From Thermoguttaceae bacterium (lineage in GTDB: Bacteria > Planctomycetota > Planctomycetia > Pirellulales > Thermoguttaceae): DNA of 64,000 nt. This document shows, one piece after another, positions 20,478 through 62,616 of the stretch (positions are counted from its first letter, which is position 1; each line of letters starts with the position of its first letter). A program made the position numbers and the translations under genes. Where the stretch lies: NCBI GenBank assembly GCA_031548665.1, contig JAVBQW010000029.1, positions 11,684-75,683 of the forward strand, given 5' to 3'. The notes under the pieces are model-generated. The model saw nothing but the letters and a program-made list of their open reading frames with translations. It was not told the DNA's origin and ran no database searches.

Positions 20478-20497
20478 GAAAAAGAGACCACACGATC

Positions 20498-23911: not shown

Positions 23912-23964
23912 ATGAAATGGGAGATATTTTGATATTTCCGTACAGATTTCGCGAAAAAACGTTC

Positions 23965-24066
23965 GTCATCCCCGCGAAGGCGGGGACCTAGACGGAAGGC
24001 GTTATTAACCGTTTGCACACTCTTAACTTGCGGCGATGCAAAGGGTTGGAAAATTTACTCTCTAGG
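23965..24066. mobile_element. PAL-A MITE-like element, copy 3, truncated in its right terminal repeat
   Basis: The full left TIR and internal region are present. The right TIR stops after TCTAGG, where the 154-bp element begins. Confidence 0.8.
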
Positions 24067-32418: not shown

Positions 32419-32505
32419 CGGTTTTTCAGAGCCCGAAGCCGGTTTTTCAGAGCCCGAAGCGTAAGCGCGGGGTTAGAACACAACCCCTCGCTTACGCTTC
32501 GGGCT
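32419..32505. repeat. PAL-F hairpin preceded by a direct duplication of its head (20 bp, 21-bp period)
   Basis: GGTTTTTCAGAGCCCGAAGC occurs at 32419-32438 and 32440-32459. Hairpin CAGAGCCCGAAGCGTAAGCGCGGGG…CCCCTCGCTTACGCTTCGGGCTC (22/23) at 32447-32505, just after the hydrogenase stop. Confidence 0.85.
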
Positions 32506-34809: not shown

Positions 34810-34874
34810 CCGGTACTCCAGTCATCCCCTTTAGCCGGTACCCCGGTCCTCCCCATTTAGCCGGTATTCCGGCT
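34802..34874 (+). repeat. Three tandem PAL-G units (about 25-bp period) overlapping the argH stop codon
   Basis: TTTAGCCGGTA begins at 34805, 34830 and 34856. The argH TAG stop is the TAG of the first unit. Confidence 0.85.
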
Positions 34875-42715: not shown

Positions 42716-42743
42716 AAATAAAAGCCGTAAGGTTTTTTATACC

Positions 42744-42789
42744 CAAGAGCCGGGGGTGTAGGCGGTACTCCGCCGTAGCCCCCGGATGG
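42744..42789. repeat. PAL-D' hairpin (PAL-D head plus GGTACTCC core)
   Basis: CAAGAGCCGGGGGTGTAGGCGGTACTCCGCCGTAGCCCCCGGATGG. A reverse-oriented relative lies at 52515-52572. Confidence 0.8.
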
Positions 42790-42928
42790 TTAGTGTTCCG
42801 AACAGAATGAAACCTCGAATATGTTTTTTCGAGCGGCAATCGCAACAACGGTGATTGAAGTTCGTTCCGTCCGTCAGTGCGCCAGAATACCGGCTCCCTT
42901 CCGGCTGTTGTATTACCCCCAACGAATC

Positions 42929-45900
42929 ATGAAACGATTACTTCTCTTCATCGTCCTTTTCTTCGCCGCGACGACGGCGTTCGGACAGGTTTCGAAACTG
43001 AACACGATCAAGAATCCGTCGCTGGACGAGTTGCGGAAAAACTTTGCGAAGCCGCATCGGGATTACAGCACCGGCCCGCTCTGGACCTGGAACGACATGC
43101 TGACGGAAGAACAGGTCCGTTCGACGCTCCGGGACTTGGCGGGACAGCACGTCAAACAGGTCTGGGTGCATCCGCGGCCGGGCCTGATGACGCCGTATCT
43201 TTCCGACGACTGGTTCCGGCTCTGGAAGGTTGCGCTGGACGAAGCGGAAAAGCTCGACATGAACGTCTGGATTTACGACGAGAACTCGTATCCGAGCGGT
43301 TTCGCCGGCGGTTTCGTGCCGGAAGCACTCCCCGACTCAAGGGGCATGGGCCTGAAATTCGAGGAAATCGACGCCGCTGAAAAAATCGACGAAAACATCT
43401 GGTACGTTTTCCAGCCGTCAGGTTTTAGCCCGCGCAGCGGCGAACCCGACCAACAAACGTACAAAAACATCACCGAAACCGCCAAGAAAAACGGCAAGTT
43501 GGAAAAACTCGAAAACGAACAAAAATACCTCGTCGGCAAGATCCACACCACGCCGCAGGGCGGTTGGTTCGGCGGCAAATGGTACGTCGACCTCTTGAAA
43601 AAAGGCGTTACGGAAAAGTTCATCGAAATCACGCATGAATCGTACAAAAAGAACGTCGGTGACCAGTTCGGCAAGCGGGTTCCGGGCCTGTTCACGGACG
43701 AGCCGCATCCGGCGGGGTCCTACGTCGGAACGTGGGTCCACTGGAACGACGACATTCCCGTACAGTTCGAGAAAAAATTCGGATATTCGCTCATCGACAA
43801 TCTCCCGTCGTTACAGAAAAAAGTCGGCGACTGGAAAAAGGTGCGGCACAATTTCCATCAATTGATCCTCGAACTGTTCGTCGACCGATGGTCGAAGCCG
43901 AACTTCGAATGGTGCGAAAAGAACAACCTTGAATGGACCGGACATTATTGGGAACACGGTTGGCCCAGCACGGGACACGGCCCCGACAACATGGCGATGT
44001 ACACCTGGCATCAACGGCCCGCGATCGACTTGTTGATGAACACGTACAACGACAAGTCGCCCAACGCCCAGTTCGGCAACGTCCGGGCGGGGAAAGAACT
44101 TTCCTCCATTGCGAACCAGATGGGCCGCAGCCGAACGCTGTCCGAAAATTACGGCGCCGGCGGTTGGGACATTCGGTTCGAAGACCTGAAACGGCTCGGC
44201 GATTGGTCCTATGCGATGGGCGTGAACACCTGCAACGAGCATTTATCGTACGTCACGATCCGGGGCGCCCGCAAGCGCGACCATCCCCAATCGTTTTCGT
44301 ACCATGTCCCGTGGTTCGAAGGATATCACGTTCTGGCCGATTATTTTACGAGATTGTCGTACGTTTTGTCGCAGGGTCGGCAAATTAACCGCATCGTGGT
44401 TCTCGAACCGACGACGACGGCGTGGATGTATCAGGGGGAAGGAAAACTGAACGAAATCGGGCAGAGTTTCACCGATTTCGTGAACGCTCTGGAACACGCG
44501 CAAGTCGAATACGATCTGGCGTCGGAAGACACGATTTCCCGTTTCGGCGGTGTCGACGACAAGACGTTTTCGATCAATCTCGGCAAGTACGATCTGGTGA
44601 TCCTGCCGCCGAACATGGAGAACGTCAACAAACGCACGGCGGAATTATTGGCGCAATATGTCAAAAACGGCGGCAAGCTGCTCTGCGCCGGCGACTGGCC
44701 GACCCTCTGCGATGGTTCGGAGCCCGGCGGCGTCGAAGCCCAATGGTTGAAACTGCTCGTCGATCTGCCGAACGCGGAACGGACTTCGACCGCTGATGCC
44801 GTAACCGCCGCAAAAAAACGAACGACCGAAGATGGAATTTCGTTCAACGTCCCCGAAGGAACGACCGGTGTGTTTCATCATCGGCGACGTTTGCCGGACT
44901 GCGAAATCTTCTTTGTCTGCAACGTGGACCAGGAAAATCGTGCGAATATTTCGATCAATTGGCCGGCGGGGAAGCATCTTTCTCTTTGGAGCTTGCAGAA
45001 CGGCGAAATCGTCAACACGAGACCGGGCCCGGCCGACATCGCCATGTATATGTTGCCGAGTTCCAGTCAGCTGCTTGTTTTTACCGATACGAAAATAATG
45101 GGTGCCGGTCGCGGCGAGGCCATACCGAAACAAAAGAAAGTGTTCGGCTCCGAAACGACGATCAAGCGACTGGACGACAACGTGTTGACGCTGGACTTCG
45201 TGGACGTCAAAATCGGCGACGAAGAACGCAAGGGGATTTATACTTACGCCGCGAACCGTTGGATTTTCGAGAAGCACGGCACCGGCGTCGTGAGTCGCGG
45301 CGGCCAGAGTTTCTTCGGCAATCCATGGGACAGTTGCGTCCAATTCAAGGACGAACTGATCACGAAAACCTACCCGGAAGGCAGCGGCTTCGAAGCGGTT
45401 TATCGCTTCAATATCGACAAAGAATACTTCTCGCAAAAAGAGCCGGGGACGGAGCGTACTCGCGCAGTCCCCGGACCCTTCGCGATCGTGATCGAGCGCG
45501 CCGATCTGTACAAAATTTATTGCAACAACGAACCGGTTGCTGTGCAACCGGAGTCTTGGTGGTTAGACAAATCGTTCGGTAAAATCGACATTTCAAAACA
45601 CGTCAAGCCCGGCGAGAACGAAGTCAAAATCGTCGCCGATCCGATGACGATCTACCACGAACTGGAACCGGCGTACCTGCTCGGCGACTTTTCGTTACGC
45701 CCTACCCTGAAGGGTTTCGTCGTCTGTCCGCCGCAGCCGCTCACCATGCAACCGGCGGAAAAAATCACCCCGGAAACCTGTCACGACGAGGAAATCGAGC
45801 GGGTTGCCTGGCTGTCCAGCGGCGTCGGATTCCGTCCGACGCGGCCCGAACACAAGGACGACCGGGCTCCGTGGATCGAGTTCGATCTCGGCAAGGAACA

Positions 45901-46741
45901 GGAAATCGTTGCGCTGCGGATTTGGAACTACAACGAACGGAATATCAAACAGCGCGGAGTCGCCGAAATGGACGTTACGGAAATCGGTTCCGTGTCGCTG
46001 CCGATCGGCAACGGTCTCGCCGTCGATATTCCGTTCGAAAAACCGACCAAAATGAAGACGGTCCGGTTCACGATCCGCTCAAGCCACGCCGGAGCGAAGT
46101 TTCCAATCGCCGAAGGGGATGAAGTTCGAGGAACCGGTTTCGTCGGTCTCGCCGAGGTACAATTCCTCGTCCGGGATTCCAACGATCCGAAAAAACTGGT
46201 CCCGCTCAAAAACGTAACGGCAACGGCGTCGAGCGAACTCGTGATCGATTCTCACGACAGAAAAGCAAAGTACGTCGTCGACGGCAGTGGTCTCGGCGCC
46301 GAACCGCCGTCCCGAAACGGCTGGAATTTCCAGGGGATGCCGTTCTACGCCGGAAAGGTCGAGTATTCCCGGAGCTTCGACGTCGAAAAAATGGACGGCA
46401 AGTATTCGGTAAAACTGCCGGACAGTCCGAACGGTTGGTACGGCGCGACGGCTCGGATTTTCGTCAACGGCTGTAATGCCGACAGTGACGCCGGATTCGT
46501 CGTCTCTTCGCCGTGGACGGTCGACGTCACGAAATTCGTGAAACCGGGCAAAAACGACGTTTTCGTGCAAATTTACGGAACGCCGAAGAATCTGCTCGGT
46601 CCGCACCACGCCGGTCGGCTTCGCGGCAGCGCCTGGCCGAACGCCTTCCAACGGGGACCGGACAAACAGCCCGCCGGAACCGCTTACGATACCATCGGTT
46701 ACGGACTGTTCGAACCGTTCGAGTTGATCCAGACGAAATAA
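42929..46741 (+). CDS. Large secreted glycoside-hydrolase-like protein (GH106/GH2-sugar-binding-like N-terminal region) with a discoidin (F5/8 type C) domain
   Basis: Start at MKRLLLFIVLFFAATTAFGQ. PHRDYSTGPLWTWNDMLTEEQV…VWVHPRPGLMTPYLSDDWF is a pattern seen in rhamnosidase-like GHs (from memory). PWIEFDLGKEQEIVALRIWNYN is the discoidin part. Family uncertain. Confidence 0.75.
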   Translation: MKRLLLFIVLFFAATTAFGQVSKLNTIKNPSLDELRKNFAKPHRDYSTGPLWTWNDMLTEEQVRSTLRDLAGQHVKQVWVHPRPGLMTPYLSDDWFRLWKVALDEAEKLDMNVWIYDENSYPSGFAGGFVPEALPDSRGMGLKFEEIDAAEKIDENIWYVFQPSGFSPRSGEPDQQTYKNITETAKKNGKLEKLENEQKYLVGKIHTTPQGGWFGGKWYVDLLKKGVTEKFIEITHESYKKNVGDQFGKRVPGLFTDEPHPAGSYVGTWVHWNDDIPVQFEKKFGYSLIDNLPSLQKKVGDWKKVRHNFHQLILELFVDRWSKPNFEWCEKNNLEWTGHYWEHGWPSTGHGPDNMAMYTWHQRPAIDLLMNTYNDKSPNAQFGNVRAGKELSSIANQMGRSRTLSENYGAGGWDIRFEDLKRLGDWSYAMGVNTCNEHLSYVTIRGARKRDHPQSFSYHVPWFEGYHVLADYFTRLSYVLSQGRQINRIVVLEPTTTAWMYQGEGKLNEIGQSFTDFVNALEHAQVEYDLASEDTISRFGGVDDKTFSINLGKYDLVILPPNMENVNKRTAELLAQYVKNGGKLLCAGDWPTLCDGSEPGGVEAQWLKLLVDLPNAERTSTADAVTAAKKRTTEDGISFNVPEGTTGVFHHRRRLPDCEIFFVCNVDQENRANISINWPAGKHLSLWSLQNGEIVNTRPGPADIAMYMLPSSSQLLVFTDTKIMGAGRGEAIPKQKKVFGSETTIKRLDDNVLTLDFVDVKIGDEERKGIYTYAANRWIFEKHGTGVVSRGGQSFFGNPWDSCVQFKDELITKTYPEGSGFEAVYRFNIDKEYFSQKEPGTERTRAVPGPFAIVIERADLYKIYCNNEPVAVQPESWWLDKSFGKIDISKHVKPGENEVKIVADPMTIYHELEPAYLLGDFSLRPTLKGFVVCPPQPLTMQPAEKITPETCHDEEIERVAWLSSGVGFRPTRPEHKDDRAPWIEFDLGKEQEIVALRIWNYNERNIKQRGVAEMDVTEIGSVSLPIGNGLAVDIPFEKPTKMKTVRFTIRSSHAGAKFPIAEGDEVRGTGFVGLAEVQFLVRDSNDPKKLVPLKNVTATASSELVIDSHDRKAKYVVDGSGLGAEPPSRNGWNFQGMPFYAGKVEYSRSFDVEKMDGKYSVKLPDSPNGWYGATARIFVNGCNADSDAGFVVSSPWTVDVTKFVKPGKNDVFVQIYGTPKNLLGPHHAGRLRGSAWPNAFQRGPDKQPAGTAYDTIGYGLFEPFELIQTK
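45437..45474. repeat. PAL-C palindrome inside the large GH ORF
   Basis: AAAGAGCCGGGGACGGAGCGTACTCGCGCAGTCCCCGG, read as KEPGTERTRAVPG. Confidence 0.85.
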
Positions 46742-46750
46742 GGACATTCA

Positions 46751-49700
46751 ATGAGACTTTTTTTCCTGCCGATATTGCTTGTTCTTGTTGTGTTCTGTAA
46801 TTTCACAACGGCTCAAGAGAAAAAAACCTTCGACGGCGACTTCGCCCCTTCCGACGGCTGGTTGAAACCGGCGGAGCGGGAATTTCGGCACGAAATCTGT
46901 CTCAACGGTTCGTGGGAGTTCCAGCCGGTTCCGGTTCCCGCCGATTGGAAGCCGAACCAGGGCGTTCCGCCGGAACTCGTCAAACCGCACGAAAACGGTT
47001 GGGAGAAAACGCGGATAAAAATTCCGTCGCCGTGGAACGTCAATACCTGGGGCAACGGCCGCAACGTCGGCGAGGGAACGAAGCATCCGTATTGGCCGGA
47101 CTCGGTGTACTATCCGAGCTATCCCGAACACTGGGACGGCGTCCGCATGGCGTGGATGAAAAGAGAATTCGCCCTTCAGAGCCGCGACCGTGAGGAAGCG
47201 GTTCGGTATATTCTCCATTTCGAAGCCGTCGGCGGCAACTGCGAAGTGTACGTCAACGGCAAAAAGGTCGGCGAGCATTTCGGACGTTTTTTACCGTTCG
47301 AGTTCGACATCACCGACGCGGTGCAATTCGACAAACCGAACGAAATCCTCGTCGGCGTCCGGAGTCTGCGTCTGTACGATAAAGTGAGCGAAAAGTTCAC
47401 GAAGATGCGGACGCCGTACCCGCCGGGCTCGAACATGGACAACATCTGCGGAATTTGGCAGGACGTTTATCTGCTTACGGTCCCCGCCGTGCGGATCGAC
47501 GACGTCTTTGTAAAACCGTTCGTCTCGAAGGACACGCTGGAAGTCGACGTCACGCTGAAAAACGATTCGGATAAACCCGTCAACGTTTCGATCGACGCTT
47601 GCGTTTTAGCCGCCAACGGCGCGCAAACGCCAATGAAATTGCAACGAACAACTGAAACGGAAATCCTCGCCGGAAAAACCGCAACGATAACGCTCACCGA
47701 AAAGGTCGGCGACAAACTGAAGCACTGGTCGATGGACGACCCGAATCTGTACAATATCGTCCTCGACGTGTCGGCGGACGGTAAAAAGATCGACACGAAG
47801 CAGACACGATTCGGTTGGCGGGAATTCAAAATCGTCGGTAAGGAGTTGCAACTCAACGGCAAGCCGGTGAAGTTGTTCGCCGATTTGTTGCATCCGTTCG
47901 GGCCGTTCATCTGTTCGCGGGACTACGTGAAGGCGTGGTACACGATGGTCAAAGACATGCACGGCAACGCGGTGAGACCGCACGCGCAGCCGCATCCGCG
48001 GATTTACCTCGAATTAGCGGACGAAATGGGAATCGCCGTACTCGACGAAACCGCTCTGTTCGGCAGTTCGATCCAATTGAACTTCGAGGAGCCGATTGCG
48101 TGGGACCGATTTTCGGAGCATTATCGCAAACTGATTTTGCGCGACAGGAACCATCCGTCGGTGTTCGGTTGGAGTTGGGGAAACGAACTGTTCGCGATTT
48201 TCATTTACGACAAGAACATCACGCCTGAATTGACCGACATCTGGTGGGACAAGCTAGCGGCGTACGGAAAAGAGGGCGAAAAGTTGGACCCCTCCCGGAA
48301 CTGGTTTTCCTGCGACGGGGACGGCGATGTTCGGGGAACGAGTCCGGTCTGGAACAAGCACATCGGACACGGCCTGCCGCCGAAAGATTTTTTACCTGAG
48401 AATCTCGACAAACCGTTGATGATCGGCGAACAGGGGGGCTCGTATTACGCCAGACCGGGACAGCTTGCGGTGTTCAACGGCGATCGGGCTTACGAAGACT
48501 ACCGGGGCCGTAGCGAGGCGCTCGGGATCGACGTGTATCAAAATATCGTACAGGTCGCGATTCCGAAGTTGGCGTTCTTCTCCCCGGCGGAAACGGCGTG
48601 GTTCGGTTTGGAGCATTTACCGCTGGGATATTCCGATTTCAGCCGCCTGCCGAATAAACGGGACGGAATATTCTTCACGAAACCTTGCGAAGAAAACAAG
48701 CCCGGCGTGCAGATCGAACGGTTGCCGCCGTACGTCTGTACGTTTAATCCCGGTTGGGACAAGACGCTGCCGCTCTACAAACCGCTCCCGCTCTTCGAAG
48801 CCCAGAAAGCGGCGCAGGATCCGCGAGGTCCGCAACCGTGTCCGATAGGACAGAAACTCAATTTTCGGGCCGTCAGCATCCGAAGCATGGAGACCGATCA
48901 GGTTTTGTTTCACGGCGACCCTCAAGGGGAATTGTTCCGACAGCTCACGGCAATCGGTGTACCGCTCGTTTTACCGAAGGACTGGTCGAAAGAAAGACGG
49001 AATTCCTTCGTCATCGTCGACGGCAATACATTTTCCGACACGAATACGCTTAACGCCGATGAGAACTGGCGAACCGTCGTCGTGTTCCGGCGGAAAACGG
49101 AGATTCCAAAATCGTTCGAGAAATGGTTGGGCAAGACGACGCTCGTCGATCGAACGGCAACACAACTCAAAGGGGTCGAATTATTTTACTATGCCCAAGG
49201 TTGCGGCGTCGACGACTATTATTTTGCCGAAGAGCCGGGGGACCGTAACGTGATCAAATGCGGCTTCGAACTTGATCCGGCGAAGGAATACAACGTTTAT
49301 TACGAAGCGGCGGCGGTCGATTGGTCGTTGTTCAACGAGAGTCCAGAAGCGGCGAAATGCGGGGCCGTCTGCCTTTACGAATCGCTTGAAAAACCGTCCG
49401 GCATCGCGGCTGTCGCCTGCAAGACGAACCGAAGCGAAATTCTCTTTACAACGATCGACGTGATTCCGACGTCGCCGAAAAACGTTGCGCTATGGAAAAT
49501 GTTGCTTTACGGCGTGAAATTCGTCGAGCCGAAATCGGATTGGCTCGTGAAACCGTTCGAAAAAGACGAACCGGGAGTCGAGTGGAATTATACGTTCGAT
49601 AAACCGGCGGACGATTGGATGAAACCGGACTTCGACGCCGCTGTGTGGAAAACCGGCAAGGCGGGCTTCGGAACCCGTGTTCCCGGAATCGAAAAAAGCA

Positions 49701-50041
49701 CCACGCCGTGGACCGGAACCGATATTTGGCTCCGCAAAAAATTCGAGAGCAACGACGAAATCGAATTTTCAAAACTCTTTTTGAACGTCTACCACGACGA
49801 AGACGTCGAAGTTTACCTGAACGGCGATCTCGTCCTGAAACGGGGCGGACATCTCGTCAAGTACGAAAACTTCGAACTGCAGGGAGAACAGAAAAAGTTA
49901 CGAAAAGGCGAAAACGTCCTCGCCGTCCATTGCAAACAGACGGCGGGGGGCCAATACATCGACGTCGGCCTCGGAGTCAAAGCGTCCGGCGCAACGAAAA
50001 AGAAGGAACACGATCTGCTCATGGACGGACCCGTTCAATAA
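46751..50041 (+). CDS. GH2-family glycoside hydrolase (beta-galactosidase/glucuronidase-like) with an extra C-terminal sugar-binding-like jelly roll
   Basis: LHFEAVGGNCEVYVNGKKVGEH, GIWQDVYL, HGNAVRPHAQPHP, RDRNHPSVFGWSWGNE. C-terminal W…PDFDAAVWKTGKAGFG…IWLRKKF…VYLNGDLV. Confidence 0.85.
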   Translation: MRLFFLPILLVLVVFCNFTTAQEKKTFDGDFAPSDGWLKPAEREFRHEICLNGSWEFQPVPVPADWKPNQGVPPELVKPHENGWEKTRIKIPSPWNVNTWGNGRNVGEGTKHPYWPDSVYYPSYPEHWDGVRMAWMKREFALQSRDREEAVRYILHFEAVGGNCEVYVNGKKVGEHFGRFLPFEFDITDAVQFDKPNEILVGVRSLRLYDKVSEKFTKMRTPYPPGSNMDNICGIWQDVYLLTVPAVRIDDVFVKPFVSKDTLEVDVTLKNDSDKPVNVSIDACVLAANGAQTPMKLQRTTETEILAGKTATITLTEKVGDKLKHWSMDDPNLYNIVLDVSADGKKIDTKQTRFGWREFKIVGKELQLNGKPVKLFADLLHPFGPFICSRDYVKAWYTMVKDMHGNAVRPHAQPHPRIYLELADEMGIAVLDETALFGSSIQLNFEEPIAWDRFSEHYRKLILRDRNHPSVFGWSWGNELFAIFIYDKNITPELTDIWWDKLAAYGKEGEKLDPSRNWFSCDGDGDVRGTSPVWNKHIGHGLPPKDFLPENLDKPLMIGEQGGSYYARPGQLAVFNGDRAYEDYRGRSEALGIDVYQNIVQVAIPKLAFFSPAETAWFGLEHLPLGYSDFSRLPNKRDGIFFTKPCEENKPGVQIERLPPYVCTFNPGWDKTLPLYKPLPLFEAQKAAQDPRGPQPCPIGQKLNFRAVSIRSMETDQVLFHGDPQGELFRQLTAIGVPLVLPKDWSKERRNSFVIVDGNTFSDTNTLNADENWRTVVVFRRKTEIPKSFEKWLGKTTLVDRTATQLKGVELFYYAQGCGVDDYYFAEEPGDRNVIKCGFELDPAKEYNVYYEAAAVDWSLFNESPEAAKCGAVCLYESLEKPSGIAAVACKTNRSEILFTTIDVIPTSPKNVALWKMLLYGVKFVEPKSDWLVKPFEKDEPGVEWNYTFDKPADDWMKPDFDAAVWKTGKAGFGTRVPGIEKSTTPWTGTDIWLRKKFESNDEIEFSKLFLNVYHDEDVEVYLNGDLVLKRGGHLVKYENFELQGEQKKLRKGENVLAVHCKQTAGGQYIDVGLGVKASGATKKKEHDLLMDGPVQ

Positions 50042-50053
50042 ACGAGGATTTTT

Positions 50054-50128
50054 TCACACGGAGGCACAGAGGCACGGAGAGGAAGATGAATTGAAAATAT
50101 TCCTCCGTGCCCCCGTGCCTCCGTGTGA
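50054..50128. repeat. Long imperfect inverted repeat TCACACGGAGGCAC-NNN-GGCACGGAG … CTCCGTGCC-NNN-GTGCCTCCGTGTGA
   Basis: Two ~26-nt arms with a 3-nt internal mismatch and an AT-rich ~22-nt loop. Lies between the GH2 and GH43-like genes. Confidence 0.8.
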
Positions 50129-50162
50129 AACAAAATGAATTACATTTCAGTATCGATCCATC

Positions 50163-51245
50163 ATGAAAACAACACCATTCATTTTATTTCCGTTCGTCGT
50201 TTTGCTGAACATTTCACTTCGGGCGCAAGATACACCGAAAGTTCTGTATCCGACGGACAACAACGTCCAATGGATCACGAATCCGACAACGGAAAAAATT
50301 GCGCAACCGAAAATGAAATGGGCCGACACCGCGAAGAAATTCGACAAGGACGGCAAGCCGATTCCGTACTCGAAAGATCCCACGGTCGTTAAATTCGGCG
50401 GACGGTATCTGATGTACTTTTCGCTGCCGCCCAGCGATAAAGTCAAGACGCCGTGCGGTTGGATCATCGGAATCGCCGAGAGTTCCGATCTCGTCAACTG
50501 GAAAACCGTTCGGGAAATTGCGCCGATGCAGGATTGCGACCAAAAAGGACTTTGCGCTCCCTGCGCCCGGGTTTGGGACGGCAAGGTGCATCTCTTTTAC
50601 CAAACGTACGGAAACGGAAAGAACGACGCGATCTGTTACGCTTCGTCGGAAAACGGGCTCGATTTCACGCCGCATCCGGAAAACCCGGTGTTCCGACCGC
50701 ACGGCGATTGGACCTGCGGCCGCGCGATCGACGCCGACGTGTTCCGCTTCAAGGACAAACTCTTTCTGTACGTTGCGACCCGCGATCCCGACATGAAAAT
50801 CCAAAAGCTCGCCGTCGCAACCGCCGATCCGAACTCCGATTACGGCCCGAAATGTTGGACGCAAGCCGCCGACCGCTCCATTCTCGAACCGGAATTGCCG
50901 TGGGAGACGAAATGCATCGAAGCGGCGACCGTCTGTGAGCGCAACGGAAAACTCGTCATGTTCTACGCCGGAGGATACAACAACGATCCGCAGCAAATCG
51001 GCGTTGCGCAAAGTTTCGACGGCGTCAACTGGACCCGGCTCTGGTCGGTTCCCTTCCTTCCGAACGGTCCCGCCGGACAATGGAATTCCTCGGAGTCCGG
51101 ACATCCCGGCGTGTTCGTCGACGACGACGGGAAAACGTACCTTTTTTACCAGGGAAATCCCGACAAGGGAAAAACCTGGTTCCTCTCCGTCGTCGAAATC
51201 GGCTGGAACGGCGACGAGCCGTTCGTTGTTACGGAAAATCAATGA
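50163..51245 (+). CDS. Secreted five-bladed beta-propeller glycosidase (GH43-superfamily-like)
   Basis: DPTVVKFGGRYLMYFS, WIIGIAESSDLVNW, ARVWDGKVHLFYQ, LFLYVATRD and KLVMFYAGG form repeated blade-like motifs. The exact family is not resolved. Confidence 0.6.
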   Translation: MKTTPFILFPFVVLLNISLRAQDTPKVLYPTDNNVQWITNPTTEKIAQPKMKWADTAKKFDKDGKPIPYSKDPTVVKFGGRYLMYFSLPPSDKVKTPCGWIIGIAESSDLVNWKTVREIAPMQDCDQKGLCAPCARVWDGKVHLFYQTYGNGKNDAICYASSENGLDFTPHPENPVFRPHGDWTCGRAIDADVFRFKDKLFLYVATRDPDMKIQKLAVATADPNSDYGPKCWTQAADRSILEPELPWETKCIEAATVCERNGKLVMFYAGGYNNDPQQIGVAQSFDGVNWTRLWSVPFLPNGPAGQWNSSESGHPGVFVDDDGKTYLFYQGNPDKGKTWFLSVVEIGWNGDEPFVVTENQ

Positions 51246-52462
51246 AGCACCGGAAAAAGAACAGGCAGGTTCTCCTCCTCATCGAATCGTCCCGGGCGTA
51301 CGGCCGGGGAATCATCGAGGGCGTTTCCCGTTACGTTCAGGAGCGCGATCACTGGACGGTTTTTTACGAGGAACAGGGGATCCTCTCGACGTTGCCGCCG
51401 TGGCTGAGGGAATGGAAGGGCGACGGCATTATTTGTCGCACGGGAATCTCGACGCTCGGACTCCATCTCCGGAAGCTGGGTCTGCCGCTGGTTGAACTTC
51501 TCGGCGACGGCCGGCGTTTCGTCAGCGAGGTCCAGTCGGACGCCGTCGTCGCCGGCCGGATGGCGGCGGACCATTTCATCGAGCGGGGATTGAGACATTT
51601 CGCTTATTACAATTACGGAAATTCCTGGTGGGGCGAAGCACGGGGAAACGCTTTCGCCGGGGCATTGAGCCAAAAGGGACTCGACTGCCATACGCTGCTC
51701 TCCCGGCACGGCGAAAAGGCGGAGGCGTTCCCCGAATGGAAGCCGCTTTACGAACCGAAATTGCTGCGTTGGCTCTCGACGCTTCCCAAACCGGTCGGTA
51801 TTTGGTGCGCCGCCGATACGATTGCACAACGAGTTCACGCGGCCGTTCTCAAGCTCGGATTCTCGATTCCCGACGACGTTGCGCTGCTCGGCATCGACAA
51901 CGACGAACATCTCTGCAACGTCCTGACGCCGACGCTTTCGAGCATCGAGCCGAACTCCATCGTCGTCGGTTACCAGGCGGCGAAACGGTTGGACGCCAAG
52001 ATGGATCGGAAAACGTCCAGAAATCGAGAAAAGCCGCCGGACGAAACGCCGATCAGGATTGCGCCGCAGGGTGTCGTCCAGCGGCAGTCGAGCGACGTGA
52101 TCGCGGCCGCCGACCCGCTGCTCGTCGCCATCGCCCGGTACATTCGGAGCAACGCCCTGAAAGGATTGCTCGTTGCCGACGTCGCGCGGGAATTCGATAT
52201 TTCGAAACGGACTCTCGAACGGCGTTACAGAAACCATTTCGGACGAACCGTCGACCGGGAAATTACGCTGCTCCGCATGGAACACGCGAAATTCCTGTTG
52301 CGGGAAACTCTCCTGCCGGTCGCGGAGATCGGCGAACAGACCGGATTCGATCGCAACTATTTCATCAAGGCGTTCCACCGGATCGTCGGCGTCTCGCCCA
52401 GCGTTTATCGGAACGAACACCGTGTCGGTACGCCGTGGAAAGATCGACGCGAGGATCATTAG
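51242..52462 (+). CDS. XylR-like regulator (periplasmic-binding-protein-like sensor domain plus AraC-type HTH)
   Basis: Start at MKHRKKNRQVLLLIESSRAYGRGIIEGVSRY, overlapping the upstream stop as ATGA. C-terminal ISKRTLERRYRNHFGRT…IGEQTGFDRNYFIKAFHRIVGVSPSVYR. Confidence 0.85.
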   Translation: MKHRKKNRQVLLLIESSRAYGRGIIEGVSRYVQERDHWTVFYEEQGILSTLPPWLREWKGDGIICRTGISTLGLHLRKLGLPLVELLGDGRRFVSEVQSDAVVAGRMAADHFIERGLRHFAYYNYGNSWWGEARGNAFAGALSQKGLDCHTLLSRHGEKAEAFPEWKPLYEPKLLRWLSTLPKPVGIWCAADTIAQRVHAAVLKLGFSIPDDVALLGIDNDEHLCNVLTPTLSSIEPNSIVVGYQAAKRLDAKMDRKTSRNREKPPDETPIRIAPQGVVQRQSSDVIAAADPLLVAIARYIRSNALKGLLVADVAREFDISKRTLERRYRNHFGRTVDREITLLRMEHAKFLLRETLLPVAEIGEQTGFDRNYFIKAFHRIVGVSPSVYRNEHRVGTPWKDRREDH

Positions 52463-52514
52463 ATTTTCGCTCGACAACAACATCGCCGAGGTTTTCTACT
52501 GTCCGGAACACCAA

Positions 52515-52572
52515 CCATCCGGGGGCTACGGCGGGGTATTGTTTCTCTGGCCGCCTACACCCCCGGCTCTTG
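52515..52572. repeat. PAL-D' hairpin between convergent genes
   Basis: CCATCCGGGGGCTACGGCGG-loop-CCGCCTACACCCCCGGCTCTTG. Confidence 0.8.
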
Positions 52573-52586
52573 AGTTGAACCTTTTT

Positions 52587-54623
52587 TTAATAGAGGCCCG
52601 GATAGGACGTGTTGCCCATGTACAGGTTGTAGAAGCCGCCGTAGTTCGCGGTTTCCTGCGGACCGACCTGGGCGCCGAAGTATCCGTACGGATAAGCATT
52701 GCGAGACGGCATCCGCATCGCGGTGTCCGTCGGCATGTACGGCGTGCACCAAGCCTGCATCATCTGCTGGAACATGTCGTTCTGGCCGCCGCCCATCCGT
52801 TGTTCACGACGCTCGGCCCGACGCGCCGCAAGCCGGGCGAACAATCCCTGGCGACGCGGTTGCTGGTCCTTCATCAGGGCCATCAACATGAGAACGTCGG
52901 TCATCGACATTCCACCCTGATTGAAACCACCTCCGCCGTTCATACCGCACATCGTGTACGGATTTCCCCCCATCATGGGATTCATTCCCATCATCGGGTT
53001 CATGCCCATCATGTTCGGATTCGCGTACATCATCATCATCGGGTTCATTCCCATCGCCATGGGATTACCCATCGACGGATTCAGCGAGGCGGTCGGATCG
53101 GTCGGATTCATTCCCCCCATCATGTTCGCGTTGGCGTCGGCGGCGTACATTTGGGCGTACGGAGCGTAAGCACCGAACATTTGCATTTGCTGCAACTGTT
53201 GCATCTGCTGCTGCATCTGTTGTTGCTGTGCGGCCTGCGGATTGATCGGCAGCGGAGCCTGAAGGTCGTTGCCCGCAAAGGAATCCTTGGCTTCGCCCTC
53301 CGCAGTCGGCTGCGGCGCCCGGCCCATCAATTGGTCGTTCTGCTGCTGGAGCAATTGAATCTGCTGCTGGAGCTGTTGAATTTGCTGGGCGTAAGCCGCT
53401 TGGTAGGGATTCATCGCAGCACCCATCATCGGATTCATCGCGGGGTTCATGCCGCCCATCATCGGATTCATCACGGGATTCATGCCGCCCATCATCGGAT
53501 TCATCATCGGCATCGGAGCCGCTTGATAACCGACGACGACCATTCCGTAAGGCGTCATCGCGGTGATCGGTCGCGGCTGCTGCATGGCCTGCATCGCTCG
53601 CATCTGCTGCATCATCATCATCGCGGCGGGATCCACGGCCGGAGCCATGGAAGGCCCGGGAATGTTCATGTCGCCGCCCATCGGCCCCATCGGACCGGGC
53701 GGCAGGACCATCCATTGCGGACCGGACTGACGGCAACGGAGCAATCCGCAACCGTTATGCGACGGAGGCATGGAAACCATCGTGAATCCGTTCGGCAGCG
53801 TGAAGCACTGCGGACCGCCGGGCATTCCGGGACCGCAGCCGCTCATTCGGCTGTTCATCGGCATTCCGGACATTCCGTAACCGTCCCCGCCCATCATCGG
53901 ATTGAATCCGACCTGCGTCGTGCAACCGTGAAGACCCGTCTGGTTGATGTATCCGTTGTTACCCATCGGAACCGACGCGGCCTTGAACAAGGGCGACGAG
54001 AACGACCACGCGGTCGGCGTTTTTTCCGACGAGCAGAAAATTCCTGCCTGCGTGATTTCGTTCGGCGTGTTCGCGGTCGGCGTCGCCGGAACGACTTCCT
54101 CGGTGTTCGAGGCGAGTTGAATCGGCGTTTTTTCCTCCGCGGCTTTCAAGGCTTTCGGTTCCTGCAGCGTCAATTCGTCGGAGACGGTCGCTTCCGGAGC
54201 GACCTCCGCTTTCGCCGGATTGGCTTCGGGCAGCGGCTGCGGCAACATCTTCGGCGAGACCGGATAAACCGATTGGTTCACGGTTTTCATCGCCGTCGGA
54301 TACGGAAGATTGTAGGAGGGAAACGCCGTATACGTCGCGACGAACGGCGAAACGATTCCGTTGTCCGGCGACGTGTTCAAACTCCGCGACGCCAATTGAT
54401 TTTGGCTCTTGGCACTCGGCAGGTATTGGATCGATTCCGGCAGCACGACATGGGGAACCATTTCGTACTGGACGTTCGGAACACCTCTGGATATTCCGGC
54501 GGGCGTTCCGGACGCTTTGTGTAGACAATCTCCTCCGAAGGCGGGCAAGCCGAACCCCAATCCGAGGACGAGAATTCCAGCGGTCAACTGTTTCCGGACC
54601 GACTTGTTGCGTTTCTTTTTCAT
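52587..54623 (-). CDS. Secreted or membrane-anchored methionine-rich low-complexity protein (678 aa)
   Basis: ATG with GAGGG 6 nt upstream. N-terminus MKKKRNKSVRKQLTAGILVLGLGFGLPAFG. GC3-rich codons on this strand, unlike the His-rich mirror ORF on the plus strand. MNPMMGG-type repeats and a Q-rich coiled-coil-like stretch. Confidence 0.75.
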   Translation of the reverse strand: MKKKRNKSVRKQLTAGILVLGLGFGLPAFGGDCLHKASGTPAGISRGVPNVQYEMVPHVVLPESIQYLPSAKSQNQLASRSLNTSPDNGIVSPFVATYTAFPSYNLPYPTAMKTVNQSVYPVSPKMLPQPLPEANPAKAEVAPEATVSDELTLQEPKALKAAEEKTPIQLASNTEEVVPATPTANTPNEITQAGIFCSSEKTPTAWSFSSPLFKAASVPMGNNGYINQTGLHGCTTQVGFNPMMGGDGYGMSGMPMNSRMSGCGPGMPGGPQCFTLPNGFTMVSMPPSHNGCGLLRCRQSGPQWMVLPPGPMGPMGGDMNIPGPSMAPAVDPAAMMMMQQMRAMQAMQQPRPITAMTPYGMVVVGYQAAPMPMMNPMMGGMNPVMNPMMGGMNPAMNPMMGAAMNPYQAAYAQQIQQLQQQIQLLQQQNDQLMGRAPQPTAEGEAKDSFAGNDLQAPLPINPQAAQQQQMQQQMQQLQQMQMFGAYAPYAQMYAADANANMMGGMNPTDPTASLNPSMGNPMAMGMNPMMMMYANPNMMGMNPMMGMNPMMGGNPYTMCGMNGGGGFNQGGMSMTDVLMLMALMKDQQPRRQGLFARLAARRAERREQRMGGGQNDMFQQMMQAWCTPYMPTDTAMRMPSRNAYPYGYFGAQVGPQETANYGGFYNLYMGNTSYPGLY

Positions 54624-54862
54624 CTGATCCCTCAGCGTATGTTTTGACGGACTCCATTCCAGGCGCGCAGACGCCGCCGGTTCTTTTCGTATGATCGAAC
54701 CAATCGTTAGGAACCGATTGCGAAACGTACCGGTTTCGACGTATTTTCTCGTCGAGTCGGTCGGGTGATGCCGGTTTGTTCGGTCGATCCGAAGAATCCG
54801 GTCGTTCCGTAGATACCGAACGTTCCGGTTCGGTAAGATTTAAGGGCGATGCAGATAGGAAC

Positions 54863-54983
54863 GTCATCCCCGCGAAGGCGGGGACCCAGACGGAAAACGT
54901 GATTGATCGTTTGCATCCGTCAATAACGTGTGCAAGAACCTATTGGAATCTGCTCTCTAGGTCCCCGCCTGCGCGGGGATGAC
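54863..54983. mobile_element. PAL-A MITE-like element, copy 4 (121 bp)
   Basis: GTCATCCCCGCGAAGGCGGGGACCCAGA…TCTAGGTCCCCGCCTGCGCGGGGATGAC. Confidence 0.9.
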
Positions 54984-55011
54984 GGAATGAGGAGCGAATC
55001 GTTTCGACGGA

Positions 55012-58984: not shown

Positions 58985-59120
58985 GACCGGAGTACCGGCT
59001 AAATGAGGACCGGGGTACCGGCTAAATAAGGACCGGAGTACCGGCTAAATAAGGACCGGAGTACCGGCTAAATAAGGACCGGGGTACCGGCTAAATGAGG
59101 ACCGGAGTACCGGCTAAAAT
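58985..59120. repeat. Tandem array of about 5.9 PAL-G units of 23 bp (GACCGGRGTACCGGCTAAATRAG)
   Basis: Units start at 58985, 59008, 59031, 59054, 59077 and 59100 and abut directly. The unit is the reverse complement of the 23-mer at 15914 and 37991. Confidence 0.95.
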
Positions 59121-59145
59121 TTTCCTTTTTGTATCGAGAGGTTCA

Positions 59146-62100
59146 ATGGACGATCGCACCATCACGTTTGACGGCCTTTCGATCAATCTTCAACAGGGAC
59201 TCGACACGGAACAGGTCCGACGTTCCACGGAAAAATACGGTCGAAACACTCTCACGCCGCCGCAGCGCGATCCGTGGTGGAAACTGCTTCTCGAAAAATT
59301 CGAGGATCCGACGATCCGTATCCTGATCATCGCGGCAGTTGTCTCGCTCCTCATGACGGTCCTTGAAAAAACCGTCCTCCAACACAAAGAAGCGAGTTTC
59401 ATCGACTCCATCGGCATCATTCTCGCCGTGCTTTTGGCGACGCTTGCCGGATTCTTCAGCGAACTGAAAAGCGCCGGGGAATTCGAGCTTTTGAACAAGG
59501 TCAAGGACGACATCCTGATCAAGGTCTTGCGGAACGGCCAGATTGTCGAGATTTCGATCAACGACGTCGTGATCGGCGATCTTGTCCGACTCGACCTCGG
59601 CGACAAGGTTCCCGCCGACGGCGTCGTTCTCGACGCCATGGGCCTGGTGCTCGACCAGTCCGTGATGACCGGCGAGTCCGTTCCCGTCGAGAAACATCCC
59701 ATCGCGCAAGAGCCGGGGGCGTCAGCCCCCGGATGCGCGGCGACGCTTGAAGACGCAACCCATCCGGGGGCTTACACCCCCGGCTCTTGCGCGGATATCG
59801 ACGAGGTTCATCTCGTTTACCGGGGAACCATGGTTTCGGACGGACACGGCTTGTTCCTCGTCACGGCGGTCGGCGACAAGACCCGACTCGGCCAGATCGC
59901 GGCGAATCTCGGTTCGACGGAGTCGGACTCCGACACGCCGCTGACGCAAAAACTGTCGAAGCTCGCCAAACAGATCAGCGTCGTCGGAATTACCGGCGCG
60001 ATGACGATTTTCACCGTGATGGCCGCCGAGGCGATCTGGAAGTCGACCCTCTTCGGCGAAAACTGGGCGGGAATCCTCCATTTTGAGGACGTCGGTCCCT
60101 TCATCGTACTGAGCTTGATCTCGCTCCTGTTCGGTTTCCTGGCGATGCGCTTCGCCCTGAAGCCGTTCTTCGAGAGCATGGACATTTCCCTGAAGAACCC
60201 GGGACTCCAAGCCTTGGCCTGCGTTCCGATGGTCGTCGGCGTCTTCGGCGTCGGACTCGGCTTGATGGAAATCCTCGACGCCCAAGACTCTTCAGTCGTC
60301 TTCTTCCAGCCGTCGGGAGAATCGAAACTCCTTGAGGGGCCCGAAGCGATGAAATGGATCGTCGGCGAAGCAATGTCGCTCGTTCGGGAATTGTTGACTT
60401 GCTTCGTCGTTGCCGTGACGATTATCGTCGTCGCCGTGCCGGAGGGACTCCCGATGATGGTTACGGTCTCGCTGGCCCTGAATATGATGAAAATGGCTCG
60501 CGAAAACTGTTTGATTCGAAAGCTCGTCGCTTCGGAAACCATCGGCTGCGCAACGGTCGTCTGCTCCGACAAGACCGGAACGCTGACCCAAAACCGGATG
60601 ACCGCGACCTGGCTTTATATTGGCCAACAAGAATTCGATGGAACGGATTTCGCCACGATACACGCCCTGCCGGAATGGTCGAAACTGGTCGACTCGATTT
60701 CCGCCAACAGCGAAGCGTCGCTGCATATCGAGACGGGCGGAGGCCGTTCCGGCGGCAAGAAAGTCGTCGAAGGAATCGGCAACCCGACCGAATGCGCCCT
60801 GTTGCGGCTGCTGTACGACGCCGGAGCCGACTACCGCAAACATCGCGACAAATATCCCCGACTTTGGGAGCTGAACCATAATTCGCAGCGAAAACTGTCG
60901 CTGGTCCTCGTCGAAGTCGACGGCAACAAACTTTGTTGGGCGAAGGGAGCTCCGGAACGGTTGATCGAACGCTGTGCTTCCGTTTACATCAACGGCGTGA
61001 CGCAACCGATTGATGAACATCTGGAAGCGATCCACGCCGCTCTCGACAAGGCCGCAAGCCAGGCGCTGCGGGTGATCGCGCTGACGGAAAAACAGGGAGA
61101 AGGAAACTGCTTCGACGAGTCGCATCCCGATCACTGTTTGAGCTGTCGCTGCCATACGTTGCTCGCCCTCGTCGGAATCGCCGATCCGATCCGGCCCGAA
61201 GTCGCCAAAGCGGTCGAAACCTGCCGCCAAGCCGGCGTCGACGTCAAAATGATTACCGGCGACTCCGAACCGACGGCGGTCGCGATCGCCCGCCAAGCGG
61301 GGATTCTTGCGCAAGAGCCGAGGATTCTTGCGCAAGAGCCGGGGGTGTCAGCCCCCGGATGCGCGACGACGCTTGAAGACGCAACCCATCCGGGGGCTAA
61401 CACCCCCGGCTCTTGCGCTGCCGCCCCCGGCTCTTGCGCGGAGGAACTTGTTCTAACCTCGGACGAACTCGCGAAGATCTCCGACGAGGAGCTGCCCGGA
61501 GTCGTCAAACGGCTGCGGGTTCTCGCCCGATCGACGCCGATGGACAAGCTCCGTTTGGTCAAGGCGATGCACCGTGACGGCGAAGTCGTCGCGATGACCG
61601 GCGACGGAACGAACGACGCTCCCGCGTTGAAATTCGCCGACGTCGGCATCTCGATGGGAATCGCCGGCACCGAAGTCGCGAAGGAAGCCAGCGACATCGT
61701 GCTGATCGACGACAATTTCAAGAGCATCGTCACGGGAATCTGGTGGGGCCGCACGCTGTACCAAAATATCCAACGGTTCCTGCAATTCCAGCTTTCCGTG
61801 AACGTCGTCGCGATGACCTGCGCCCTGATCGGTCCGATGGTCGGCATTCCGTTGCCGCTGACGGTTCCGCAGCTTTTGTGGATCAATATCATCATGGATA
61901 CGTTCGCGGCGATTGCGTTGAGTACGGAGCCGCCCCGGGAAAGTTCGATGCGGCGGCGCCCCGTTGCCCGGGACGCGTCGATCGTTACGCCGTCGATGGG
62001 CGTCTCGATTTTGCTCAACAGTTTTTACCAGGTCGTGATTCTGTTCCTCGCCCTGTATTTCGGCTGGTTCCTCGCTCCGGAACATCGATTTACGTTCAAT

Positions 62101-62448
62101 TTGGCGCCGAGAGCGGAGGAAAACATCGAGGCGTTGACCGTGTTTTTCACGATTTTCGTGATGTTCCAATTTTGGCGGATCTTCCTCTGCCGTTCATTGC
62201 GTTACGAAGAGCCGCCCTTTGCGCAGCTTTTGAAGAACCGGGCCTTCCTCGTGATCGTTTTGATTATCGCCGTCGTCCAATTCGGGATGGTTCAGGCGAG
62301 CGGCTTCGTGGGAATCGGCGAGATTTTTCGAACGGTTTCGCTCTCGGTCGGCCAATGGGGCGGCATCGCCTTGCTCACGGCGACGATCCTCCCGATCGCC
62401 TGGGCCGTTCGGCTTTTCATCTGTCGAGCGGGGCTGGAAGATTGGTAA
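59146..62448 (+). CDS. P-type ATPase, Ca2+-transporting type (P2A/P2B-like)
   Basis: Start at MDDRTITF with GAGAGG upstream. Cation_ATPase_N-like GLDTEQVRRSTEKYGRNTLTPP, TGESVPVEK, VAVPEGLP, CSDKTGTLTQNRM, MTGDGTNDAPALK. Confidence 0.9.
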   Translation: MDDRTITFDGLSINLQQGLDTEQVRRSTEKYGRNTLTPPQRDPWWKLLLEKFEDPTIRILIIAAVVSLLMTVLEKTVLQHKEASFIDSIGIILAVLLATLAGFFSELKSAGEFELLNKVKDDILIKVLRNGQIVEISINDVVIGDLVRLDLGDKVPADGVVLDAMGLVLDQSVMTGESVPVEKHPIAQEPGASAPGCAATLEDATHPGAYTPGSCADIDEVHLVYRGTMVSDGHGLFLVTAVGDKTRLGQIAANLGSTESDSDTPLTQKLSKLAKQISVVGITGAMTIFTVMAAEAIWKSTLFGENWAGILHFEDVGPFIVLSLISLLFGFLAMRFALKPFFESMDISLKNPGLQALACVPMVVGVFGVGLGLMEILDAQDSSVVFFQPSGESKLLEGPEAMKWIVGEAMSLVRELLTCFVVAVTIIVVAVPEGLPMMVTVSLALNMMKMARENCLIRKLVASETIGCATVVCSDKTGTLTQNRMTATWLYIGQQEFDGTDFATIHALPEWSKLVDSISANSEASLHIETGGGRSGGKKVVEGIGNPTECALLRLLYDAGADYRKHRDKYPRLWELNHNSQRKLSLVLVEVDGNKLCWAKGAPERLIERCASVYINGVTQPIDEHLEAIHAALDKAASQALRVIALTEKQGEGNCFDESHPDHCLSCRCHTLLALVGIADPIRPEVAKAVETCRQAGVDVKMITGDSEPTAVAIARQAGILAQEPRILAQEPGVSAPGCATTLEDATHPGANTPGSCAAAPGSCAEELVLTSDELAKISDEELPGVVKRLRVLARSTPMDKLRLVKAMHRDGEVVAMTGDGTNDAPALKFADVGISMGIAGTEVAKEASDIVLIDDNFKSIVTGIWWGRTLYQNIQRFLQFQLSVNVVAMTCALIGPMVGIPLPLTVPQLLWINIIMDTFAAIALSTEPPRESSMRRRPVARDASIVTPSMGVSILLNSFYQVVILFLALYFGWFLAPEHRFTFNLAPRAEENIEALTVFFTIFVMFQFWRIFLCRSLRYEEPPFAQLLKNRAFLVIVLIIAVVQFGMVQASGFVGIGEIFRTVSLSVGQWGGIALLTATILPIAWAVRLFICRAGLEDW
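59704..59792. repeat. PAL-D 89-bp double-hairpin element inside the ATPase ORF (first copy)
   Basis: 16-bp perfect termini GCGCAAGAGCCGGGGG / CCCCCGGCTCTTGCGC. Read as AQEPGASAPGCAATLEDATHPGAYTPGSCA. Confidence 0.9.
61301..61439. repeat. PAL-D element inside the ATPase ORF (second copy, 61330-61418) with both termini duplicated at a 21-bp period
   Basis: 86/89 positions identical to the first copy by hand alignment. GGATTCTTGCGCAAGAGCCG x2 (61301, 61322) and CCCCCGGCTCTTGCGC x2 (61403, 61424). Confidence 0.9.
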
Positions 62449-62511
62449 CCGTTCACGGACATTTGAAAACAGGCGTTCCCGTTGGGGTCGGTTTTCTATT
62501 CCGTTCCATGA

Positions 62512-62551
62512 CCGGGGACTGCGCGGAGTACCGCTTCGTCCCCGGCTCTTT
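62512..62551. repeat. PAL-C palindrome (reverse orientation), intergenic
   Basis: CCGGGGACTGCGCGGAGTACCGCTTCGTCCCCGGCTCTTT. Confidence 0.85.
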
Positions 62552-62616
62552 AGTTTGGCGACAAAACAACAGCCGGAATGGAGGCGTACTCGCCGCAATG
62601 ACGGTCGTTCGGCGTG

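Follow-up and report, generated by a model that had tools for sequence, protein, structure and literature searches.

Palindromic repeats that lie within genes have been described in several bacteria. Repetitive extragenic palindromes (REPs) wholly inside open reading frames (ORFs) are known from several species, with Opitutus terrae (a relative in the Planctomycetes-Verrucomicrobia-Chlamydiae (PVC) superphylum), Thioalkalivibrio and Rickettsia conorii among the examples. REP dimers of this kind encode 20-30 residues, and the uvrA genes of O. terrae and of Thioalkalivibrio each have two REP insertions at distant sites of one ORF (Di Nocera, De Gregorio and Rocco 2013, PMC3733652). What defines the REP superfamilies is a tetranucleotide, GTAG or CGTC, that stays unpaired at one end of the stem-loop, the CGTC type having a stem of 8-9 bp that starts with A-T pairs, and REPs of both types are on record for Planctomycetes (PMC3733652). 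The classic in-frame palindromic insertions in functional genes are the Rickettsia palindromic elements (RPEs; Ogata et al. 2000, summarised in PMC3733652 and PMC10969869). Two further classes are relevant: REPINs, which are mobilised by REP-associated tyrosine transposases, or RAYTs (Bertels and Rainey 2011, PMC3116915), and MITEs, or miniature inverted-repeat transposable elements, with in-frame fusions, such as ERIC, Nezha and QMITE (reviewed in PMC10969869). The present case concerns a 64,000-nucleotide stretch of a contig from a Thermoguttaceae bacterium (JAVBQW010000029.1), here called the window, in which a gene for a P-type ATPase carries two in-frame copies of an 89-nt palindromic element. 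The phenomenon is already known, and the case is a new example in a known class, with no new mechanism.

The account favoured here, to which a probability of roughly 0.78 is given as a whole, is that both copies belong to a REPIN-like doublet family that is mostly intergenic, survives in genes where frame, codon count and loop permit, and is translated through the pump. It is carried by the architecture and hairpin fold of the copies, the distribution of the family, the absence of the element from close orthologues, its location in loops, a bias in the frame in which it is read and the reiteration of its termini.

The two copies (Table 1) make up direct-repeat family D7 and are identical at 86 of 89 positions (97%), the only differences being at element positions 17, 37 and 70. 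They start 1626 nt, or 542 codons, apart. Since this spacing is a multiple of three and both copies lie within one intact P-type ATPase ORF (59095-62448, plus strand), they are read in one phase. An earlier, sequence-only reading of the window, which had described the second copy as sharing the orientation and phase of the first, was correct on this point. Each copy is a near-palindrome made of two inverted REP-like hairpins, GAGCCGGGGGnGTCAGCCCCCGG(ATG), around a 25-nt spacer, with GCGCAA and TTGCGC as caps. It is because this spacer is non-palindromic that "same orientation" has a meaning at all. In copy 2, the terminus GCGCAA is followed by the left hairpin (61336-61361), the spacer (61362-61386), the right hairpin (61387-61412) and the terminus TTGCGC. 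Two inverted REPs in one long hairpin is the layout of a REP doublet, or REPIN.

Perfect 16-nt terminal inverted repeats (GCGCAAGAGCCGGGGG and CCCCCGGCTCTTGCGC) are present at both ends of both copies, and the 16-mer GCGCAAGAGCCGGGGG occurs nine times in the window at up to two mismatches, where 0.08 occurrences are expected by chance. When folded as single-stranded DNA, the 89-nt core reaches -44.6 kcal/mol (z -8.4 against shuffles) and a 131-nt extended version -62.5 kcal/mol (z -10.4); both fold into near-perfect long hairpins, the arms of which are inverted repeats I12 and I17. The unit hairpin GAGCCGGGGGnGTCAGCCCCCGG(ATG), with a length of 23-26 nt that is within the 20-40 nt of the imperfect palindromes called REPs, is present four times in the window. 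The copies encode the peptides AQEPGASAPGCAATLEDATHPGAYTPGSC and AQEPGVSAPGCATTLEDATHPGANTPGSC, and the ORF translation at copy 2 agrees with the peptide that the sequence-only reading had quoted. Three of the six reading frames of the element are stop-free, while one reverse frame has a TGA stop; with half of the frames open, the occurrence of two copies in one frame is weak evidence by itself.

Table 1. Coordinates of the element copies and their host gene in the window, and fetched loci in which the repeat is read in frame
Feature	Position or locus	Strand	Basis and remarks
Copy 2 core, 89-nt REPIN-like doublet	61330-61418	+	Repeat identity, hairpin fold, REP pattern matches
Copy 1, 89-nt doublet in A-domain loop, ATPase residues 204-233	59704-59792	+	Left REP 59710-59735, right REP 59761-59786
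Two tandem 21-nt units, GGATTCTTGCGCAAGAGCCG(A/G)	61301-61342	+	Tandem Repeats Finder, 2.0 copies (61301-61341); codon view
Reiterated right terminus: 5-nt filler TGCCG, then second CCCCCGGCTCTTGCGC	61419-61439	+	Inverted repeat I12, folding
Host gene, PMCA-type Ca2+ P-type ATPase	59146-62448	+	P0001, 1100 aa, ATG 59146; longest ORF from 59095
DEAD-box helicase, repeat in frame	L043		Pfam
BlaR1 M56 peptidases, element in frame within domain	L047, L040		Pfam
Tex protein, YqgF domain split by in-frame element	L068		Pfam
Lnt, apolipoprotein N-acyltransferase, element in frame between two domains	L073		Pfam
DUF2339, EamA and amidohydrolase proteins, element upstream of first domain match			Probable in-frame carriers

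The host gene product is 100% identical to the database protein P0001 and has matches to the Pfam families Cation_ATPase_N, E1-E2_ATPase, Hydrolase and Cation_ATPase_C. The plasma-membrane Ca2+ pumps 8qmp and 6a69 (PMCA/ACA8) match it best among solved structures (E-values 5e-140 and 1.5e-137). When it is aligned to 16 orthologues, the columns of D492-K-T-G-T, T721-G-D and G836-D-G-T-N-D are invariant, and the catalytic motifs and Pfam domains are all those of a type IIB, PMCA-like P-type ATPase. None of the 16 orthologues, which are 60-81% identical, has either doublet. This absence of the element from the nearest orthologues supports the sequence-only reading.

Copy 1 adds 30 residues to a variable A-domain loop between GESVPVEK and YRGTM (site 1), and copy 2 adds 44 residues to a variable P-domain loop between AGIL and ELVLTS (site 2). 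When phmmer aligns the pump to 8qmp, the alignment is interrupted at precisely residues 201-241 and 742-784. In an AlphaFold2 model, both inserts appear as coil with pLDDT values below 50, although the model is poor overall (mean pLDDT 60.7, pTM 0.44, from an alignment of 17 sequences). Loop length at both sites varies widely among 120 homologues, and the site-2 loop has just four residues in some orthologues. By this variation, together with the alignment breaks and the coil, both sites are naturally permissive. As judged from its sequence, the pump is most likely read through, with the extra residues on its surface, and probably still functional; read-through of the inserts would yield peptides such as EPGVSAPGCATTLEDATHPGANTPGSC.

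The surroundings of the pump gene contain other repeats. At 58985-59118 on the plus strand lies a tandem array of 5.8 copies of the 23-nt unit GACCGGAGTACCGGCTAAATAAG (family D1), a different small hairpin repeat that consists of a CCGG-AGTA-CCGG hairpin plus CTAAAT. The array stops 27 nt before the ATG at 59146, in the gap to a divergent upstream gene, and related units are found at 15909, 34803-34872 (2.7 copies) and 37986. With such an array beside the start of the ATPase gene, the locus is embedded in repeat-rich DNA.

In a collection with one genome per species, a scan for the unit hairpin hit just two genomes, each a metagenome-assembled genome (MAG) of Planctomycetaceae, with 18 loci in all: 13 in Th196P3bin110 and five in RSF170216_bin_32. 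A scan of metagenomes yielded 65 more contigs with the hairpin. The window sequence itself is in neither of the collections scanned. Sample prefixes shared with the MAGs, and names, point to a termite-gut and soil origin of the 65 contigs, and by its distribution the family is a genomic repeat of a Planctomycetaceae clade from termite guts and soils. In the fetched loci, family members are mostly intergenic, whereas both window copies are intragenic and thereby depart from the extragenic position that serves as a criterion for REPs and REPINs. Singlets and doublets both occur, and the spacers of the doublets are very different among loci. The spacer of the two window copies was found at no other locus, which makes these copies each other's closest relatives.

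No Rfam family reached its gathering score anywhere in the window; sub-threshold matches, to miRNA precursors and to Acido-Lenti-1 (23 bits, with a cut-off of 37 bits), were rejected as chance matches of generic hairpins. The exact hairpin sequence had no match in the library of papers searched. An exhaustive HMMER search of 1.84 billion representatives with the 32-residue element peptide gave only four multi-stretch matches at about 51% identity, which are probably due to low complexity. A search of a word-indexed database with the element peptide gave no candidate, but it missed the parent protein as well, the segment in question likely not being indexed, and is thus uninformative.

The proposal that the two copies represent two independent insertions holds for one site better than for the other. 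Site 1 is not naive, since orthologues carry a single REP-like palindrome in the same loop and the same frame. In P0004, this palindrome reads GGT CCGGGGAC TATC GTCCCCGG CTCTTTG and forms an intact hairpin, and in P0036 it reads GAGCCGGGAGC TATC GCTCCCGGCTC, with a perfect 11-bp stem; P0003, P0012 and P0002 have decayed versions of the single hairpin. The doublet in the window corresponds to the singlet plus 51 nt (17 codons), as much as separates its two direct CCGGGGGC octamers. Taken with the orthologue singlets, this difference makes copy 1 best read as an older singlet that would have been expanded or gene-converted into a doublet, perhaps with copy 2 or a common master copy as donor. At site 2, no REP remnant was found in close orthologues, and in comparison with these, copy 2 has the appearance of a de novo insertion. 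Yet two homologues that are more distant and come from other samples have single units of the same family that start within 1 nt of the site-2 junction: CAT CCGGGGAC TGAC ACCCCTGG CTCTTGCG in P0036, and GCGCAAGAGCGGGGGGTGTCAACCCCCCGG in P0093, where the unit is in another frame. There is thus some preference for site 2 or a strong tolerance there, and the two are not separable.

Each hairpin in the fetched loci was checked for stop-free frames spanning it, and the long ones were tested against Pfam, with the in-frame carriers in Table 1 as the outcome. In Pfam-validated genes, the unit is nearly always read as EPGASAPG (forward) or PGADAPGS (reverse), the exceptions being one arm in L073, plus L066, L035 and L061. 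ORFs that run through the repeat in other frames mostly have no Pfam match. This family-wide frame bias is the stronger argument that only flexible Gly/Pro/Ala/Ser-rich insertions persist. The sequence-only reading had offered selection for the encoded peptide as one explanation of the two insertions; there is indeed a filter on frame, with nearly all validated genes using one Gly/Pro/Ala/Ser-rich frame, but no sign of a function of the peptide was seen.

Three further genes in the same 64 kb have in-frame palindromic repeats, making four genes in all. A sister palindrome family, with the structure AAAGAGCCGGGGAC-(inner GTAC-centred hairpin)-GTCCCCGGCTCTTT, is found at 13446-13500, 16303-16403, 19270-19320, 45436-45480 and 62509-62559. 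A 1443-aa ORF of the alpha-amylase family (15146-19477, minus strand) contains the copies at 16303-16403 and 19270-19320 in frame, and a 1306-aa GH106-like ORF (42821-46741) contains that at 45436-45480, also in frame; all of these in-frame copies read KEPGT...VPGS. A short way downstream of the stop codon of the ATPase gene lies the copy at 62509-62559. CGTC-type REP dimers of the form CGTC-ATCCCCGC-GAAG-GCGGGGAC-CTAGA are present at 426-563, 20344-20483, 23956-24017 and 54862-54988, and the first of these is in frame within a DEAD-box helicase ORF (1-2211, minus strand) that reads through it and runs off the window. The orthologue of this helicase in L043, with about 83% nucleotide identity across the gene, has a GAGCCGGGGG doublet in its stead, likewise between LDPEP and YAYPT. 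One helicase loop therefore holds different REP families in two genomes, a CGTC dimer here and a GAGCCGGGGG doublet in L043.

The termini of copy 2 are duplicated, as had been claimed from the sequence: there is a 21-nt tandem at the left and a second CCCCCGGCTCTTGCGC at the right. The left 21-nt unit consists of the host codons G-I-L and the left terminus of the element, which gives the peptide ILAQEPR-ILAQEPG, and the duplicated GGATTCTT encodes the GIL that is conserved in the ATPase alignment. Because the duplicated unit takes in host codons, the left duplication arose after insertion, presumably through a slippage event. On the same ground, nested insertion was considered and rejected as the source of the doubling on the left side. 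On the right, the terminus CCCCCGGCTCTTGCGC at 61403-61418 is repeated at 61424-61439 behind an unrelated filler, and is thus not a simple tandem duplication. The second right terminus, with its filler, codes for AAPGSCA, and its pairing partner is the outer left terminus at 61309-61324. The 21-nt period at both ends of the copy lengthens the hairpin symmetrically.

Reiterated termini are a recurrent trait of the family and not peculiar to copy 2. A further CTCTTGCGC was found within 50 nt at 14 of 134 outward-facing REP ends, where about 0.007 are expected per end, and L019 has a nearly identical reiterated right end, CTCTTGCGCTGCTCCCGGCTCTTGCGC. The terminus periods range, as read by eye, from about 11 to 41 nt in intergenic copies and are 18, 18, 21 and 21 nt in the four coding cases, consistent with the frame filter. 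The 18-nt periods belong to coding copies in other genomes (L040:1015-1080 and L019:1053-1101). One is part of a BlaR1-like gene, where the reiterated termini encode QEPGAFQEPGASAPG, and the other of a TPR-like ORF, where they encode AQEPGAAQEPGALAPG, parallel to ILAQEPRILAQEPG in the window. Elsewhere in the window, at 32419-32460, there is a perfect 21-nt tandem duplication, CGGTTTTTCAGAGCCCGAAGC (2.0 copies), with a period equal to that at the ends of copy 2.

When set beside the described systems, the element resembles the intragenic REPs (PMC3733652): both are short GC-rich hairpins, often in inverted pairs, mostly intergenic but in some cases wholly within ORFs for known proteins. Unlike the GTAG and CGTC REPs, the unit has no end tag, its CGTC lies across the hairpin loop and its stems lack the initial A-T pairs, so it fits neither of the published REP superfamilies; true CGTC-type and GTAG-like REPs are present elsewhere in the same window. 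With REPINs, the copies share the two inverted REPs and short spacer in one long hairpin, the occurrence of singlets beside doublets and the conservation of the family across related genomes. They differ in that a search of 578 kb showed no RAYT gene beside any copy, that REPINs are described as extragenic, and that reiterated termini are not a described REPIN feature. The likeness to RPEs is one of behaviour only: those elements, too, are in frame in many unrelated housekeeping genes, the proteins are apparently functional and the extra peptide is predicted to lie on the surface. RPEs are about 100-150 bp long, A+T-rich and found in an alphaproteobacterial endosymbiont, and are set apart by composition and size from the 26-nt G+C-rich hairpin and its doublet, to which no relationship in sequence would be expected. 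Like MITEs, the element is small, non-coding by itself and readable through, with perfect 16-nt terminal inverted repeats, but no target-site duplication is seen, no parent insertion sequence (IS) with matching ends was found in the fetched loci, and the interior consists of two REP hairpins rather than a deleted IS.

On the favoured account of a REPIN-like doublet family, the copies would be selfish or neutral passengers, not functional modules. They may have spread through a RAYT-type (IS200/IS605-like) transposase that recognises hairpins in single strands, through gene conversion between copies, or through both; RAYT-type mobilisation is suggested by the architecture only. Copies in genes would survive if they had a whole number of codons and a stop-free Gly/Pro/Ala/Ser-rich frame (EPGASAPG...PGADAPGS) and lay in a loop with room for extra residues. 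In the pump, the permissive places would be the A-domain loop after VPVEK and the P-domain loop after AGIL. Recombination between the two direct copies could in principle remove 542 codons, the phosphorylation site among them, without a change of frame.

Several observations weigh against this account. The 578 kb examined yielded neither a RAYT nor a transposase of another kind. A RAYT motif pattern had no match in six-frame translations of 524 kb of fetched DNA, which covers only a small part of any one genome, and tblastn of the 578 kb with IS200 TnpA and E. coli RayT queries gave no match either. A weak IS200-like alignment beside the repeat in L011 falls in a 593-aa ORF unlike any transposase and was rejected. 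As for a parent IS, the fetched loci showed no transposase-like ORF between two inverted units. The flanks, ...CCCATC and GGATAT for copy 1 and ...GATTCTT and GGAGGA for copy 2, have no direct repeat, and hence no visible target-site duplication, although duplications of 1-2 nt would escape such a comparison. This lack is compatible with IS200/IS605-type chemistry, but proves nothing. The unpaired GTAG or CGTC end tag of the two published REP superfamilies is absent when read from the sequence, the hairpin being preceded by GCGCAAGAG and followed by ATG, with CGTC at the boundary of stem and loop. For the source genome, the count of copies covers the 64-kb window (four hairpins). The poor AlphaFold2 model (mean pLDDT 60.7) leaves the structural argument resting mainly on alignment gaps. 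Moreover, the same two ATPase loops are re-occupied in different lineages, which could mean targeting or function rather than tolerance.

If targeting were the reason, a preference for certain target sequences, and not the tolerance of the protein, would dictate both positions. Three homologous ATPases from different samples do have a unit that starts within 1 nt of one junction, after GGG-ATT-YTN, and pre-existing REP remnants at site 1 could have served as a target. The context that the sequence-only reading had named as a sign of such a preference, ...GCGCAAGAGCC, is uninformative, however, as GCGCAAGAGCC belongs to the element itself, whose terminus it forms, and is also present ahead of intergenic copies in other genomes. 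The left flanks of 11 clear-ended copies, read by eye, share no motif beyond a weak A/T bias, and those of sites 1 and 2 are unrelated (CCCATC vs. GATTCTT). Since the site-2 loop is only four residues long in some orthologues, tolerance alone would limit the places in which insertions survive. Dictation by target sequence is considered unlikely. Similar doubt attaches to the idea that REP units of this clade do more than land at random and survive, and that certain loops (the A- and P-domain loops of the ATPase and the C-terminal loop of the DEAD helicase) are long-lived REP "landing pads", which would be repeatedly re-occupied, converted or expanded by the REP family active in each genome, the hairpin and loop peptide now being a maintained part of the gene over divergence to 60-80% identity.

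If function were the reason, the inserts would be domesticated loop modules or mRNA hairpins kept by selection as a translation pause between domains, a regulatory site or a Cys-containing site, each copy adding ...PGC...PGSC.... The REP units in the same two ATPase loops of several lineages, intact or decayed, and the different REP families in the orthologous helicase loop agree with this idea. Across six orthologues, the hairpin potential at site 1 gives 74% of cells paired compared with 30-50% in slid controls, and four pairs are changed on both sides. Shuffles of these six sequences nevertheless match both the pairing and the covariation, so that no statistical covariation emerges at this sample size. 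Most close orthologues lack the doublet at either site and any REP at site 2, the same repeat is found in unrelated proteins and in intergenic DNA, and the unit in P0093 is in a different frame, which argues against a conserved peptide. Domestication is therefore regarded as improbable. That one copy is an assembly artefact, with a palindrome misplaced or duplicated by the metagenome assembler, is very unlikely indeed. The contig is from a MAG, and palindromic repeats are hard to assemble, but the copies differ at three positions and in their termini, and each is flanked on both sides by unique, in-frame ATPase sequence that is colinear with the orthologues. Independent assemblies from other samples, in addition, show similar in-frame units at the same sites and in other genes.

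The REPIN-like family described here extends in-frame insertion of palindromic repeats from Rickettsia, Opitutus and some Proteobacteria to uncultured Planctomycetaceae, at an apparently high density of four repeat-carrying genes in a 64-kb window. For annotation, the odd Gly/Pro/Ala/Ser/Cys-rich loops in these proteins are repeat-derived and represent neither domain features nor frameshift errors. The recurrence in the same loops of homologous pumps is a small natural experiment on which P-type ATPase loops tolerate 8-44 extra residues. The more interesting residue of the case is the repeated occupation of the same loops by REPs across lineages, at both ATPase sites and in the helicase loop, which could mean targeting or long-term retention.

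Some other repeats in the window are of different kinds. Two copies of about 100 nt, at 42741-42830 and 52476-52578, are inverted relative to each other and have 63-nt arms with 84% complementarity. Both start with a GAGCCGGGGG hairpin that has a second, GTAG-flanked hairpin (GTAGGCGGTACTCCGCCGTAG) inside its loop. The pair brackets a cluster of large glycoside-hydrolase genes (42821-52462) and may be either a composite element or two independent intergenic copies. Long inverted repeats at 3815-4118 and 8667-8969, about 4.7 kb apart, have lengths of 195 nt (at 92% complementarity) and 113 nt (at 88%), and a family of about 200 nt at 8151-8442, 10019-10220 and 35084-35274 has 74-84% identity. 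They could be segments of paralogous genes or else a mobile or invertible unit of larger size. The minus-strand ORF at 52587-54623 (678 aa, no Pfam match) contains in-frame tandem repeats of 18, 21 and 33 nt at 52964-53510, such as CCCATCATCGGATTCATCACGGGATTCATGCCG, and thus encodes a low-complexity repetitive protein.

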